Source of the DNA: a virus
DNA: 21,195 bases
Reading direction: 5' to 3' (one strand)
Virus genome (UHGV): UHGV-1732480
This document shows positions 15,444 through 21,195 of this stretch, piece by piece; position 1 is the first letter of the stretch, and each line of letters starts with the position of its first letter. The notes under the pieces were generated by a model. It saw only the letters and a list, made by a program, of their open reading frames with translations. It ran no database searches and was not told the origin of the DNA. A program made the position numbers and the translations under genes.

Positions 15444-15646
15444 AACCTCACTCCCAGCGGACGACGGCGACGTCGGGTTGTCCCCAGTACCGACTCCGCA
15501 TCATTGATCGCCCGGTTAAGCTCATCCAGAGAAGCCTCCGTATATTCAATTCTGCGACCATCTTTCTGGACAGACACCACCCGTTTACCGGTTAATAAAT
15601 CAAGGCGCGCCTGACGCAGCGCCTGCAGTTCAGCGACTGTAACCAT
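15440..15646 (-). CDS. W: Head-tail joining protein W
   Basis: 68-aa ORF MVTVAELQALRQARLDLLTGKRVVSVQKDGRRIEYTEASL... matches recalled lambda gpW. Confidence 0.9.
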   Translation of the reverse strand: MVTVAELQALRQARLDLLTGKRVVSVQKDGRRIEYTEASLDELNRAINDAESVLGTTRRRRRPLGVRL

Positions 15647-17481
15647 TCACTCCTCCGGACAGCTTCGCTGCCAGTTCTTTAAGGGTTGGCCGGGTCGTCT
15701 CTTCTTCCCGGGATTTTGCCAGTACAGCCAGATCAAGCTGCCAGCGTTGCACGGACACACGTAATGCCGCATAGGCATACACCAGGCAGTCCAGCGCTTC
15801 GTTACGCCGCTTTTTGTTATCCCACAGCAGACGCATCTTTCCTTTTTCCCACTTCTCCACAAGCTCTTCCGCGACCAGTTGCTGCGCCTCTGTCTGCGAA
15901 AAAATCTCCGGATCATCAGGAAAACGGATGGCATACGACGTGGCTTCATCCGCAGGAGTGGGATCGGCTTTCATACGGGCATAGAGAATTTCTTTTGCGG
16001 TGTCCGTCCCCACTTCACACAGATACACGCCCCGCTGATTGCGGGTTTTCGGCATGGTGATCACCGGCTTGCCATAGACAGATGCGCCTTTTACCGGCAG
16101 CACCCGGAAAACACCGTGTTTTTTTGACCTCTGATAGACAATTTCACCATCGATCCCCCCGGTGTCCCAGCAGACACGGGAAATGGTCATTTCGGTTCCG
16201 TCTGCATGGCAGTATTTTTTGTTGATCGCCGCATCCACACGTAACAGCGTCTCTTCCTCATCGGGACGGCCCATAATGATGATTTTATCCACCAGAAAAG
16301 CTTCCTCTCCCGGTGCCCATCCCCAGACATACATCTCAAAACGGTTTCGCTGCGAGTCAATGCCCGCCGTCAGATAAACCACCCGGGCTGGCACCGCCGC
16401 CGTGTAATGCACGACCTTATCCATCAGTACCTGGTGATCGAGTTTTTCGCCCACGGCCTCTTCCCAGGTCTCGCCCAGCGTGGTGTTCACAAAGGTTTTC
16501 AGGCCGTTGGGATCTTTCAGTGCATCCAGCCAGTCATAGACTATCTGTACCCAGGTGGTGAACGGACTGTACGCCGTCCAGATATGGAACGTGATGGAGC
16601 GCGGCGGCGGAATTTCATTATCCGCGGCGCTGAAAAACGTCAGACCGTCACGGGTCCACATCCCCGTGTTTTCACAGATCCTTACACCGCAGATTTCGCG
16701 TACACCGCTCTTGTAAGCACGCCATGCACTTCCGCAGATACTGCGCCTCCCCACAGTGCGGGCAGGGCACATAGAAACGCATGAAATGCGCCGACTCGTT
16801 GGCCGCTTTTTCGATCTGGCAGGTGCCTTTGATTTTAGGCGTCGAGCCGCGAATGGATTTGGGCCATACAGAGCCCTCAATACGTTTATCCCCAAGCAGG
16901 GTTGGCGACCCCTCTTTTTCGACATCCGGTTCGAACGAGGAAAGTTCGTCATAGCAGACCACGTCCACGGATTTTTCACGGTAGTTTTTAGCGGCAGCCC
17001 CGCCCAGGCACCAGAAGCCCACGCCCGATGAAAAACGTTTCAGCGTGAGGGTATTATCACGATGTTTACGCCCAAACCACGGTGCAAGATCGAGTAAAAC
17101 CGGCACATCCCTGATCGTGGGTTCCACATGAGATTTCATAAAATCTTCAGCAGCAGAATCCGTGGGCTGGAAAAGAAGGCTGTTGCGTGATTTATGCTCA
17201 ATAAAATAAGCCTCCACTCCCAGCAACATCTTTGTATAACCAACACGGGCAGATTTAATCAGATTAACAGTGCGGATCCGGTCATTCCCCATGCTGTTCA
17301 TGATGGCAACCTGAAACGGCAGTGTTTCCCACCGCCCCGGGGTGTAAGATGACTCTTTCGGAAGGTAATAATGTCGATCTGCCCACTGAACTGTCGTCAG
17401 AGGGACAGGAATTTTTAGCGCAAGGAGGCCGGTTGCTATCGCTCCTGCAGAATTAGCCGCCCTCAGTTCGTCTGAAATCAT
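15630..17481 (-). pseudogene. A: Terminase large subunit A, split between two reading frames (frameshift in about 16681-16734)
   Basis: ORF 16672..17523 carries the lambda gpA-like N-terminal part (…WADRHYYLPKES…RWETLPFQ…PCPHCGEAQYL) and ends in a stop. ORF 15630..16979, in another frame, carries the C-terminal part (ICENTGMWTRDG…ALDCLVYAYAALR). Start set at ATG 17481 (MISDEL…). Confidence 0.75.
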
Positions 17482-18001
17482 CAATCCACCTGCGCACATT
17501 CTCACCGGCTTCAGAAGCCACATCGGATGCTTTCGCGATTTCAGTTTTCACAGCATCAAGATGTACGGGTGATATATCAGGGTATTTACGCTGCAGTGTC
17601 TGAGGGACACGGACAAGGATCCCTGATATATTCTGTGCCACTCGCTGAAAGATGTAGGTAAATAACTCCGTCTCGAGGACAAGGCCTTCCTCACGAGCAT
17701 TTTTCAGCTCCTGTGCATCGGCCTGTGCCTTCGTCAGTCGGTAACGTTCGTAATCAATGGTGCAGGGCTGAAGGTCTGATTCGCTGGCAGCCCTCAAATC
17801 CTCGATCTCTTTACGGAGTTTTTCGTTTTCAATATCAGCTTCCCTCTGCGCATACCACTGAATGGCAGCAGTTGTATCAAAAACTGATTCAGTCCCTTTC
17901 CCTCCACCAGAAACTAGTGGTAACCCCTGACTCTGCCAGGCGGTGATGGTCCTGACATCAACGCCAAAAATATCGGCCAGTTTTTTCTTATTGACGTTCA
18001 T
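17453..18001 (-). CDS. Nu1: Terminase small subunit Nu1
   Basis: 182-aa [39 protein letters not shown]... matches recalled lambda Nu1; 3' end overlaps A start as in lambda. Confidence 0.93.
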
Positions 18002-18388: not shown

Positions 18389-18574
18389 ATGTCATCAAAG
18401 AACAGAACCCGCAGAACAACAACCCGCAACATCCGATTTCCAAACCAGATGATTGAACAAATTAACATCGCTCTTGATCTGAAAGGTTCAGGAAACTTTT
18501 CAGCGTGGGTTATTGAAGCCTGCAGAAGAAGGCTGTCAACAGAGAGTTCGGGTATGAATTACATAATTAAGTAA
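18389..18574 (+). CDS. Small (61 aa) predicted ribbon-helix-helix-like DNA-binding protein, unknown role
   Basis: ORF with GGGGAA 6 nt upstream of ATG. Basic N-terminal arm, then beta-strand-like RNIRFPNQ, helix, G-x-S/N turn (KGSGNFS), helix: an RHH-like pattern. Opposite strand to the late genes, in the AT-rich island. Confidence 0.5.
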   Translation: MSSKNRTRRTTTRNIRFPNQMIEQINIALDLKGSGNFSAWVIEACRRRLSTESSGMNYIIK

Positions 18575-19197: not shown

Positions 19198-19671
19198 CTA
19201 TTTCAGGCACTGAGTGCGGATATAGTCCTGCGCCCCTTCCAGCTGCTTCTGCATCAGCATCAACCGTTCTCTGAGAGTGAAATAATCCCGTTCAGCGGTG
19301 TCTGCCAGTTGGGGGCCGGTTGCATTATCCACGCGGGCGGTGCCGGTGGCTTCACGCACGGGACCTGGACAGGTGGCGTTGATACGCAGGCGCTTACGAC
19401 CAGCGGCAACGTCAGCGCGAAGAGTTTCATTTTCAGCTCTCGCATCGGCTAATTCCCTCGAGTATTTTGCATCGAGCGCAGCAACATCGCGCTGGCGCAC
19501 CTGCATATCAGTAATGGTTGCGTTCGCCAGCTTCAGTTCACTGGCTTTGTTATCGCGCTGCGCTTTGTAGGTAATCGCGTTATCACGGTAATGGTCTGTT
19601 GCCATCCACAGCGCTCCACAGGCCACCAGCAGAATAACGATAAACGCGGAAAGCATTCGGTTTATGTTCAC
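19198..19671 (-). CDS. Rz: i-spanin Rz
   Basis: 157-aa ORF with N-terminal TM and ...[45 protein letters not shown]... matching recalled lambda Rz. Confidence 0.9.
19260..19445 (-). CDS. Rz1: o-spanin Rz1 (lipoprotein), embedded in the +1 frame of Rz
   Basis: 61-aa [23 protein letters not shown]... with lipobox VSAC and proline-rich [11 protein letters not shown], matching recalled lambda Rz1. Confidence 0.85.
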
Positions 19672-19799
19672 CCCAGCAGCCCCGACGAAGACAACATCAT
19701 CCAGGCCATGGAAAGAAAAAGAGCAACCAGCATTAGTGAAAATGAAATGCCGACAATTACACAGAGGATCTTCGCCAGCGTTATGAGTTTGTCTGACAT
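19668..19799 (-). CDS. Small (43 aa) single-pass membrane protein, unknown function
   Basis: ATG at 19799 preceded by AAGGGAGGA; protein [43 protein letters not shown]; its stop overlaps the GTG start of Rz (GTGA), suggesting translational coupling. Confidence 0.5.
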
Positions 19800-19813
19800 G
19801 CTTAATCCTCCCT

Positions 19814-19996
19814 TCACGATTTCAACGCAATGACCAGTTTTGCCAGCCCATACAGCATCGGGGACACAGCAACACCGACCGCCACCCACTTAATGGCAAA
19901 AGCCAGTGCTCTGCTGATGTCATCAGTTACAGGCGCTTTCAGTTCAAGGCCGTTTTTCATAGTCAACCTCAACAGAATTCGTTTATACTTTTCCAT
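19814..19996 (-). CDS. Small (about 60 aa) protein with charged N-terminus and C-terminal hydrophobic segment, unknown function
   Basis: [60 protein letters not shown]; AGGGAG upstream. Start uncertain (GTG 20029, ATG 19996 or ATG 19960). Its 3' end holds the SD of the downstream 43-aa ORF. Confidence 0.4.
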
Positions 19997-20030
19997 GTTC
20001 TCCCTTGCCTTATCCAAGGTCAGAAACACA

Positions 20031-20070
20031 AAACCCCGCTTGCAGCCAACAAACGGGGTTTTTACTTTTA
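20031..20070. terminator. Hairpin with flanking A- and T-tracts (CCCCG...CGGGG stem); intrinsic-terminator-like in both orientations, downstream of R
   Basis: Plus strand AAACCCCGCTTGCAGCCAACAAACGGGGTTTTTACTTTT; on the minus strand the stem is followed by TTTTGTGTTT. Confidence 0.45.
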
Positions 20071-20152
20071 TTCACTTAGGTTTTGCCAGTTCTCAGGATT
20101 TCGTGTTATCCGTCCGCATTAGCCAACGTCATTTTTCAACAAAATATTCTGC

Positions 20153-20686
20153 TTATTTGTCAATTCCCCAGCACGCCAGCGCGCTCTCCTGGTCACGCCG
20201 TGAGACCTGTCCATAGCAGTTATTTGAACGAATACGGCAGTCTCTGCCACCGTCCTTAATCCACCAGCGAATCGCCTCACATGCTCCCCTGCGATCGCCA
20301 GCATTAATTCGTCTGTAAAACGTCGACGGGAAACACTTACCGGGACCAATGTTGTACGGACAGAATGACGCGATCCCCGCTTTCTGGGGTTCGGTCAATG
20401 GCACTTTGATGTTTTTCTCCACCCATGCCAGCGCCTTATCACGCTCAATGGCGTTAACCCGGTCGCATTTTTCCTTCGACAACTTCATGCCCGGAACGAC
20501 AGGTTTGCCATCCACCAGGATGGCACCGCGGCAGATGGTCCAGATACCCGCGCCATCACGGTATGCCGTGGTGTGGTTACCTTCCTTTTCATCCAGAAAC
20601 TGGTCGAGAATGTCAGGCGCAGGCGCACCAGCGGCAATCAGCGCCAGAACGGCAGCCGACAGGCCGTATCTGATTTTTGCGTTCAT
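20153..20686 (-). CDS. R: Endolysin R, T4-lysozyme-like (GH24) with N-terminal SAR (signal-anchor-release) domain
   Basis: 177-aa ORF MNAKIRYGLSAAVLALIAAGAPAP...EGNHTTAYRDGAGIWTICRG... The hydrophobic, Gly/Ala-rich N-terminus is typical of SAR endolysins; resembles the lysozyme of Qin/933W-type prophages as I recall it. Confidence 0.9.
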   Translation of the reverse strand: MNAKIRYGLSAAVLALIAAGAPAPDILDQFLDEKEGNHTTAYRDGAGIWTICRGAILVDGKPVVPGMKLSKEKCDRVNAIERDKALAWVEKNIKVPLTEPQKAGIASFCPYNIGPGKCFPSTFYRRINAGDRRGACEAIRWWIKDGGRDCRIRSNNCYGQVSRRDQESALACWGIDK

Positions 20687-20791: not shown

Positions 20792-21064
20792 ATGGACAAT
20801 AACACCATTTCTCTACAGGAGTTGCTCGACAGCATTTCCAGGCTTCGGGAAGACGTGAATACCCTTACCGTCGCCTTCTCATATCTGGCATTCTCAATTC
20901 CAAGGGAACAGATGCAATCAACGCTGGCATCAATCCAGTTTGAATCATGCAATCCCAAATGGTCTCAGGAACAACAAGACTCTTTCAGGCGGCTTGCTGT
21001 ATTACTGGATGAAAAATATGCTGGTAAAATTACCATTTCGGCGGACTCTTCAGAGAACCCGTAA
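20792..21064 (+). CDS. Hypothetical 90-aa protein, divergent from R
   Basis: ORF with GAGGA 7 nt upstream of ATG; weak hairpin plus T-run downstream (about 21098-21125); no TM segment; no homolog recognised. Confidence 0.4.
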   Translation: MDNNTISLQELLDSISRLREDVNTLTVAFSYLAFSIPREQMQSTLASIQFESCNPKWSQEQQDSFRRLAVLLDEKYAGKITISADSSENP

Positions 21065-21195
21065 TTATTCCCGGTAGTTTTCCTCTGTAGGTTATCAACA
21101 CATCCTGCGCCTCTAAAATTACGGGGCGCTTTTCCGGCGACTGCTCATCCCCTTCACATAACCCGGCAGCAACATCCAGGAAGACCTGTCTGATG

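Follow-up and report, generated by a model that had tools for sequence, protein, structure and literature searches.

The lysis region of UHGV-1732480

The window analysed here is the whole 21,195-nt stretch of the virus genome UHGV-1732480, and the element in question is the lysis region near its end, where two small open reading frames (ORFs) for membrane peptides, here called orfA and orfB, lie between the endolysin gene R and the spanin genes Rz and Rz1 (Table 1). A first-pass annotation, made from the window alone, had described an atypical lysis cassette with no holin upstream of R. We found a phage-21-type core whose holin lies beyond the window end in a near-identical locus, with orfA and orfB as small conserved genes in a variable R/Rz junction.

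The N-terminus of R (YGLSAAVLALIAAGAPAP) is weakly hydrophobic and rich in Ala and Gly, as predicted for a signal-arrest-release (SAR) segment. An E-x8-D-x5-T motif could be read from its sequence, and the protein is homologous to PDB 3hde/3hdf and to RrrD (4zpu). The window ends inside ydfR, and the apparent absence of a holin upstream of R proved to be an artefact of that edge. The upstream extension that had been called for was obtained through Escherichia coli strain 118UI, which shows 4 mismatches with the window in 4461 nt (99.9% identical over 4.5 kb) and is annotated upstream of R, in order, with a class II holin, YdfR, an antisense hypothetical protein and lysozyme. The holin has 71 aa, matches PF04971 (P21 holin S; E 9e-33) and occupies the equivalent of window positions 21379-21594, that is, 184-399 nt past the window end; ydfR (DUF1327) and the antisense 90-aa ORF lie between it and R. 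It has Met at positions 1 and 4 (a dual start) and a charged C-terminal tail (KIREDRRKAARGE). The phage genome PhiR12_1 has the same layout. Judged by these sequence families, the core is a canonical cassette of S21-family pinholin, SAR endolysin and Rz/Rz1, and the headline inference of a holin-less cassette was wrong. The divergent plus-strand ORF reported upstream of R is real and corresponds to the 90-aa ORF.

The 1151-nt stretch from R to Rz is present at 100% identity in many complete E. coli genomes. Of 5426 such genomes, 2164 contain some part of the 403-nt region that holds the hairpin and the two small genes, and 1038 contain at least 80% of it.

Table 1 Features of the lysis region and adjoining genes in the window.
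Feature	Position	Strand	Evidence or remarks
ydfR (DUF1327), 3' part, truncated by the window end	21195..21030	-	exact match to L001 4556-4721; full gene PF07041, E 4.5e-42
90-aa ORF (WP_000369850.1)	20792..21064	+	phrog_2411, E 1.1e-58; antisense, between ydfR and R
R, GH24 endolysin	20686..20153	-	PF00959, E 3e-24
Two-way terminator-like hairpin	20062..20030; with flanking runs 20020..20066	- / both ways	A-run, 14-bp stem, T-run
Predicted ~75-nt cis-antisense RNA	19997..20072	+	spans orfA Shine-Dalgarno sequence and leader, ends at hairpin/U-run
orfA, 60 aa	ATG 19996, stop ends 19814	-	ORF; phrog_1115; Shine-Dalgarno AAGGGAG
Predicted sigma-70-like promoter within orfA codons 3-13	19960..19989	+	TAGTCA, 18 nt, TATACT
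orfB, 43 aa	ATG 19799, stop ends 19668	-	ORF; phrog_4906; Shine-Dalgarno AGGGAGG
Rz, i-spanin	GTG 19671 or ATG 19656, to 19198	-	PF03245, E 5e-50
Rz1, o-spanin lipoprotein	19445..19260	-	PF06085, E 1.3e-20; inside Rz, +1 frame
YlcI/YnfO-family gene, followed by Nu1 and the terminase large-subunit gene	18389-18574 (YlcI/YnfO-family gene)	+ (YlcI/YnfO-family gene)	past Rz

Two small membrane-protein genes between R and Rz

The two ORFs, of about 60 and 43 aa and each with a hydrophobic segment, were present as first described, as was the strong Shine-Dalgarno (SD) sequence of the second. Both are 'hypothetical protein' in RefSeq, and phrog_1115 and phrog_4906 are of unknown function. Neither they nor the related small peptides had a match in Pfam, NCBIfam or PADLOC, and no similarity of orfA or orfB to any known toxin family was seen in Pfam or NCBIfam.

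The orfA protein has a single, moderately hydrophobic segment in its C-terminal part (Kyte-Doolittle 19-residue maximum 1.88). Its AlphaFold model (predicted local distance difference test score, pLDDT, 76) consists of two helices joined by a loop: a basic, amphipathic one at the N-terminus (residues 2-14) and a long one at residues 23-59 (37 residues). The membrane segment is unusually conserved (AFAIKW.AVG...SP.LYG.A.L..A.KS), and the helix carries small-xxx-small motifs. There are two in-frame starts, Met1 and Met13, the latter preceded by an SD sequence, GAGG, and used in many gene calls. In size and hydrophobicity the product falls among the small (under about 60 aa) hydrophobic membrane proteins to which type I toxins belong.

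Compared with a Salmonella copy, the ratio of nonsynonymous to synonymous differences (pN/pS) of orfA was 0.23 (pS 0.53, pN 0.12; binomial p 2e-6). Seventeen distinct nucleotide versions had 9, 3 and 16 variable sites at the first, second and third codon positions, with pN/pS of 0.05-0.36 against the window. The near-identical loci had been retrieved with orfA as the query; they are preselected for intact orfA and give no rate of its disruption.

The SD sequence of orfB begins right at the end of the orfA stop codon, 14 nt separating that stop from the orfB ATG. Residues 11-43 of orfB are uncharged (hydropathy maximum 2.89), and the peptide is very hydrophobic, with a single helix. Against the most diverged copy, pN/pS was 0.37 (p 0.002), with constraint in both halves. 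Selection on orfB is weaker than on orfA (variable sites 22, 17 and 28 by codon position); its length is constant at 43-44 aa and its N-terminal half is strongly conserved. These substitution patterns indicate that orfA and orfB are genuine genes under purifying selection. orfB was found in E. coli only, and is annotated in strain Sakai as ECs_1966, ECs_5730 and ECs_5732. In phages encoding Shiga toxin (Stx phages), the match to the window sets in exactly with the A of the orfB ATG (query position 272), and orfB lies directly upstream of Rz, mostly unannotated in the phage records. A relationship of orfB to the orfA family was considered and rejected (profile-profile probability 3% in hhalign), and the two are treated as unrelated; similarity of orfB to a duplicated N-terminal transmembrane segment of Rz was too weak by eye.

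The 3' end of orfB, GGGGTGA, supplies the SD sequence or the start codon for Rz. Its TGA overlaps the GTG at 19671 (GTGA), so that the reported overlap of the orfB stop with the Rz start holds if Rz begins there and fails if it begins at the RefSeq start, ATG 19656. Related alleles start Rz with ATG AAC CGT (MNRVLC...), which reads ATA AAC CGA in the window; therefore, Rz starts here either with the GTG that overlaps the stop codon of orfB or, five codons further on, with the ATG. The basic residue that precedes the Rz membrane helix is kept only in the GTG-start product and is removed by the RefSeq ATG. In all junction types, the SD-like 3' end of a small ORF adjoins or forms the SD region of Rz.

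The R/Rz junction as a site for cargo

Syntenic R-Rz regions of related prophages were compared, as the first-pass annotation had proposed. The K-12 prophages Qin and DLP12 have neither orfA nor orfB, and their R gene runs into Rz, the stop of the one overlapping the start of the other. In the window, R and Rz are 481 nt apart (496 nt to the ATG start), with the hairpin and the two small genes in the interval; the insert thus lies between genes that are adjacent in relatives, as in a moron. A census of 56 distinct versions of the R-Rz interval showed variable contents. With A for orfA, B for orfB, ant for the antirepressor gene and C, D and E for other small peptides, these included A+B (the window), A+C, A+B+A'+C, D+B+A'+C (O104:H4), ant+B (VT2-Sakai; Sakai Sp10, Sp11 and Sp12), ant+D+B, E alone, and A+B with a DNA methyltransferase. 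Peptide C (MSAELIRAMAFAIRIVAIAVLVWAIRWW) is a truncated member of the orfA family. On these comparisons of sequence, the R/Rz junction is a mosaic hot spot for insertions, antirepressor and methyltransferase genes among them. The suggestion that the small ORFs might be an unrelated membrane-peptide moron fared well in a broad sense for orfA, a mobile and conserved cassette in an insertion hot spot.

Three junctions show further arrangements. In E. coli O104:H4 (L004, 2496-3060) the order is peptide D, orfB, the C-terminal two-thirds of orfA, peptide C and Rz; orfB is joined to the partial orfA through GGGGTGA, and the GTGA stop/start overlap recurs, so the orfB 3' end seems to act as a portable junction. 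In L024 and L036 (interval 499-1434), a 311-aa DNA methyltransferase gene lies between orfB and Rz, and only a '..WW-stop' remnant of peptide C precedes Rz. In E. coli SA31-1 (L085, 678-2900), PF16931 and PF05449 holins and a GH108 endolysin are followed by orfA and orfB homologues; no Rz homologue follows orfB there, and a 51-aa lipoprotein (lipobox LVGC) and a 69-aa soluble ORF stand in its place.

The orfA family and its constant hairpin

To collect the orfA family, 1.84 billion representative proteins were searched with a profile, and a named collection was then searched in the same way. Members, all 'hypothetical', occur in Escherichia, Salmonella, Klebsiella, Serratia, Yersinia and Enterobacter. 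Between an endolysin gene and Rz they accompany GH24, GH108 or GH19 enzymes and PF04971, PF16080, PF05106 or PF16931+PF05449 holins; overall, the family occurs with five holin families and four endolysin types (GH24, GH108, GH19 and PG_binding_1). Other members follow an antirepressor gene, adjoin Rz in a Yersinia prophage remnant, or stand as the last gene after a tail-fibre assembly gene. In baseplate operons of Klebsiella and Serratia they lie between the spike gene and a gp25-like gene. The member in a P2-like prophage occupies the gap from the tail-fibre to the sheath genes, where a PG_binding_1 protein precedes it and two lipoproteins follow. In every context the gene has the orientation of the late operon.

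Two of these neighbourhoods have features of their own. In the P2-like loci L113 and L114 (1530-3065), a 280-aa PG_binding_1 protein, the hairpin, the orfA-family gene and two small lipoproteins follow one another in that order and may represent a second, accessory lysis-like gene set. In the Salmonella locus L089 (740-2201), three tandem copies of STnc100 (RF02076, E 2e-13 to 2e-17) lie between a Q-like antiterminator and the holin.

The terminator-like hairpin reported after R was confirmed; it lies 90 nt after the R stop and is GC-rich, with an A-run before and a T-run after the stem. A hairpin of the same form (A-run, CCCCG, variable loop, CGGGG, T-run) was found 10-90 nt upstream of every orfA-family gene examined, in all contexts. 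L104 and L115 keep it despite an operon terminator immediately before it. In L104, the tail-fibre context, hairpins flank the gene on both sides, and this is the only case with a downstream hairpin. Peptides D and E, whose N-termini are unrelated to orfA, have the same hairpin, and E also has much of the leader. A 70-nt match to the hairpin and its flanks (80.6% identity) occurs in the Actinobacillus pleuropneumoniae phage vB_Apl-pPE4 at 37860-37929 (hit H130), outside Enterobacterales; it may be merely terminator-like sequence.

Many members end in ...RWW-stop (CGN TGG TGG TGA), 1-13 nt before the next gene. Read from sequence, this ending would double as a ribosome-binding site (RBS) for the next gene and let the cassette sit in an operon without silencing the genes downstream. 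The promoter scan, which covered consensus sigma-70 sites only, found none between R and orfA. The promoter and downstream terminator that a moron carries were thus not seen at orfA: its hairpin is upstream, and no sigma-70-like site lies between R and orfA.

A predicted antisense RNA over the orfA leader

The plus-strand TAGTCA/TATACT pair within orfA (Table 1) is, by itself, within chance expectation in the promoter scan. Across 11 diverged homologues, synonymous change is almost absent from the codons that underlie the -10 (AAG TAT AAA; codons 3-5) and the -35 (TTG ACT ATG; codons 11-13), and the spacer codons and those downstream do vary. Codon pairs for the same residue differed in 18% of cases in codons 3-16 versus 50% in codons 17-38, and the Tyr codon is TAT in all 13 lineages seen. 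Homologues with other residues retain -35-like hexamers at 16-18 nt (TTGGCC, TTTACC, TAGACA, TGGTCA), and the D/E cassettes have a -10-like TAAAAT at the equal position of their ORF (nt 8-13).

The predicted transcript starts at about the orfA start codon, covers the SD sequence and leader, and stops at the hairpin, whose U-run is better on the plus strand. It folds into two predicted stem-loops (-20 kcal/mol, z -3.3), and the same antisense architecture is predicted in the 11 homologous loci. We thus predict a ~75-nt cis-antisense RNA, in a layout like that of a type I toxin-antitoxin (TA) locus. The Pas small RNAs (sRNAs) were considered as counterparts and set aside: they adjoin the holin/lysozyme operon, usually in the gap that separates the esterase gene from the holin gene, and not the R-Rz position.

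Proposed role of orfA and orfB

We favour, with moderate confidence, a phage-21-type cassette that carries cargo, in which orfA and orfB are late-expressed accessory peptides of the inner membrane and not a holin/antiholin pair. The cargo would consist of ydfR, the antisense ORF, orfA and orfB. orfA would be a portable cassette made up of the two-way terminator hairpin, a conserved leader and a protein with an amphipathic helix, a loop and a transmembrane helix. Given a terminator before it in every context and no detected promoter in the R-orfA interval, orfA is probably not expressed in the lysogen; the terminator would keep it silent, probably with help from the ~75-nt antisense RNA that would start from the promoter in its codons 3-13. 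It would be made only on Q-antiterminated late read-through, together with the lysis proteins. Both peptides would then enter the inner membrane, perturb it and, as accessory factors that the phage can do without, tune the timing or efficiency of lysis by a pinholin/SAR system that depends on membrane potential. A precedent is HokW, a prophage type I toxin that is reported to help lysis and phage release by Sp5 (PMC8621323). In Stx-type phages of E. coli, the Rz module would begin with orfB, whose translation would end on the Rz RBS or start and thereby restore the translational coupling that the R-Rz overlap gives in phages without the insertion.

Several observations weigh against this proposal. 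A strong terminator in the baseplate operons is hard to square with downstream expression unless those phages antiterminate. For the RNA, RNAalifold on 11 leader/hairpin sequences gave two pairs with compensatory change, the sequences being too alike for a test, and Rfam at a permissive threshold returned no family, the sole hit being a weak, terminator-driven rimP-leader match on the antisense strand in the window and in Salmonella L089. The frozen synonymous sites could reflect the internal Met13 start with its GAGG or mRNA structure. None of the Hfq-bound EcOnc sRNAs of enterohaemorrhagic E. coli Sakai (Tree 2014, Table S2) lies at the R-Rz junctions of the three prophages inspected, which carry ant+orfB and not orfA; EcOnc33 and EcOnc51 lie near nanS-p and the holin. 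As for orfB, pN/pS ranged over 0.3-0.96 across versions, with 0.7-0.96 in some pairs, and the gene is frameshifted in about 10 of 87 loci. The methylase between orfB and Rz in L024 means that a coupling role is not obligatory. The Sakai locus tags were not mentioned in the literature searched.

A bolder extension is offered tentatively. In it, orfA is the toxin of an unrecognised type I TA-like cassette that is spread across Enterobacterales prophages and adapted to operons, its two-way terminator ending the antisense RNA and its RWW-stop (UGGUGGUGA) re-priming translation of the next gene. Q antitermination alone would unlock the cassette in lambdoid and Stx phages, and the toxin would depolarise the membrane and set off the pinholin/SAR system, affecting lysis timing and Stx release.

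The same elements could instead form a type I TA module whose main job is not lysis: orfA would be a membrane toxin restrained by the cis-antisense RNA and would serve prophage maintenance, by killing cells cured of the prophage, or abortive infection against competing phages, its site in the lysis cassette being incidental. We regard this as rather unlikely. Such a module would show what 13 lineages have conserved, a small hydrophobic protein together with a terminator and an antisense promoter-like site, and also the mobility of the orfA family across unrelated contexts; type I systems of prophages are known (PMC8621323; PMC2887945). Against it, no promoter for a toxin mRNA was found, several contexts leave no room between hairpin and start codon, and the gene is always co-oriented with the late operon; the RNA is itself a prediction and the toxicity putative.

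It seems improbable to us that these are classical morons of the kind exemplified by HK97 gp15 and T4 Imm, which serve lysogenic conversion or superinfection exclusion: the prophage would then express them, and from the inner membrane they would block the entry of DNA from other phages or modify the envelope. The prophage end after tail-fibre genes, the P2-like tail-fibre/sheath gap and the R/Rz junction beside ant and methylase genes are typical sites for such genes, the peptide types turn over fast in a mosaic manner, and the gene of L104 is flanked by hairpins on both sides. However, the scan found no promoter of its own, PADLOC gave no match, and a sense-direction terminator upstream in every context argues for silence in the lysogen.

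For orfB, and possibly the short C and E peptides, there is little likelihood that the reading frame has no protein function and is kept open to deliver ribosomes to Rz, its hydrophobicity being tolerated. The SD-like 3' end adjoins or covers the Rz start in all alleles, and the frameshifted copies, the pN/pS near 1 in some comparisons and the restriction to E. coli would be expected of such an ORF. The constraint on both halves in the deepest comparison (pN/pS 0.37) speaks against it, as do the fixed length, the conserved N-terminal half and the retention of orfB in L004 and L024, where it does not abut Rz.

A relocated holin/antiholin pair that triggers or delays SAR-endolysin release, with Met1/Met13 of orfA as its dual-start motif, is the least likely of the explanations and very improbable: the peptides are membrane proteins inside a lysis cassette, each with at least one transmembrane segment (by hydropathy, and for orfA also in the model), the orfA starts are separated by 12 codons, the extension holds four basic residues, GAGG precedes Met13, and the helix has small-xxx-small motifs, but a bona fide dual-start S21 holin is present upstream, the hidden Markov model searches of both peptides in Pfam, NCBIfam and PHROGs gave no holin family and no lysis-category PHROG, neither has, as the first-pass annotation had seen, the charged hydrophilic C-terminal tail of a holin (orfA ends ...ALKS and orfB ...SSSGLLG), and both are absent from the functional relatives Qin and DLP12. 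Nor does orfA keep to one partner holin: its family stands beside all the holin types listed above and in tail modules that lack a nearby holin. A protein whose family follows neither one holin type nor one endolysin type, and which occurs beyond lysis cassettes, is not a dedicated antiholin. The first-pass annotation had named a holin beyond the window, together with small ORFs not conserved in related prophages, as evidence against itself; the holin is there, and the ORFs are conserved.

The existence of the family is not new, the genes being already in databases as hypotheticals. Literature searches on the arrangement, the Sakai locus tags and the PhiR12 phages returned nothing relevant, and four points were found nowhere in the literature searched: the constant link between hairpin and orfA, the operon-compatible design of the cassette, the antisense-promoter signal, and a conserved, mostly unannotated orfB in Stx-phage lysis regions. 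The question matters since about 40% of complete E. coli genomes carry at least some of the 403-nt region. Lysis timing in Stx phages governs the phage burst and also the release of Shiga toxin. If the peptides modulate the membrane-potential-sensitive pinholin/SAR system, they would be unstudied accessory lysis factors; if the antisense RNA is real, orfA would define a new family of antisense-controlled prophage membrane toxins with an operon-compatible design. If neither is true, the R/Rz junction is still a cargo site, and a holin missing at a window edge is not to be read as biology.

Neighbouring features

The 90-aa antisense ORF overlaps the 3' end of ydfR by 35 nt and fills the space upstream of R. 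It is carried by 118UI, strain 602354 and PhiR12_1 and is absent from the relatives L087, L088 and L097; in relatives without it, ydfR lies about 50 nt from R. A possible TTGCCT/TACAAT promoter was noted upstream of it, by eye only. The ORF looks like a moron in the opposite orientation.

Downstream of Rz in Sakai Sp10 and Sp12 (L109, L110), EcOnc10 overlaps the 3' end of the YlcI/YnfO-like gene, and EcOnc11 lies between Rz and that gene, in the gene's orientation. These positions point to an sRNA derived from the 3' end of the gene, which the window may also encode (18389-18574). In the terminase large-subunit gene, 53 nt at 16682-16734 (minus strand) replace 130 nt of 118UI (net -77 nt) and split the gene into two frames, with ORFs at 16672..17523 and 15630..16979. 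The prophage copy may be packaging-defective, or the assembly may be wrong there. A further two-way terminator-like hairpin lies at 2369-2399 (AAACCCCGGTATCAGCAGATACCGGGGTTTT).

Comparison with known systems

The cassette of phage 21 and those of the K-12 prophages Qin (essQ-ydfR-rrrQ-rzpQ/rzoQ) and DLP12 (essD-rrrD-rzpD/rzoD) have in common with the present one the holin family PF04971, the endolysin family and the embedded Rz/Rz1. Qin also has the S-ydfR-R order. Qin and DLP12 differ from the window in their R-Rz overlap, and the window has the antisense ORF between ydfR and R. The lysis regions of Stx phages (VT2-Sakai; Sp10, Sp11 and Sp12), ordered S, R, ant, small ORF, Rz, contain the same orfB at 80-89% nucleotide identity from the ATG. 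They differ in having the antirepressor gene in place of the orfA cassette, and there orfB overlaps the ant stop.

Lambda bor and lom and HK97 gp15 are examples of lambdoid morons. Lambdoid morons are extra genes placed between neighbours that adjoin each other in related phages (PMC2629481). orfA and orfB share this placement and are likewise apparently dispensable, mosaic in distribution and present at several recognised insertion sites. A classical moron has a promoter upstream and a terminator downstream, whereas orfA has no promoter that we found, a terminator upstream and a 3' end built for coupling.

The type I TA loci hok/sok, hokW/sokW of Sp5 and zorO/orzO likewise encode a small hydrophobic membrane peptide and are prophage-borne, and the 70-110-nt cis-antisense RNA predicted for the orfA family would resemble theirs in covering the RBS and ending at a terminator. 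They differ in that orfA has no sequence similarity to the known toxins and no toxin promoter was found for it. In P22, sar is a short antisense RNA whose promoter lies at the start of a cargo gene in the late operon, and it pairs with the RBS of that gene. Its layout is similar to the one predicted for orfA, with a membrane peptide as the target in place of an antirepressor. Control of ant by the antisense RNA sar is cited in PMC2629481.

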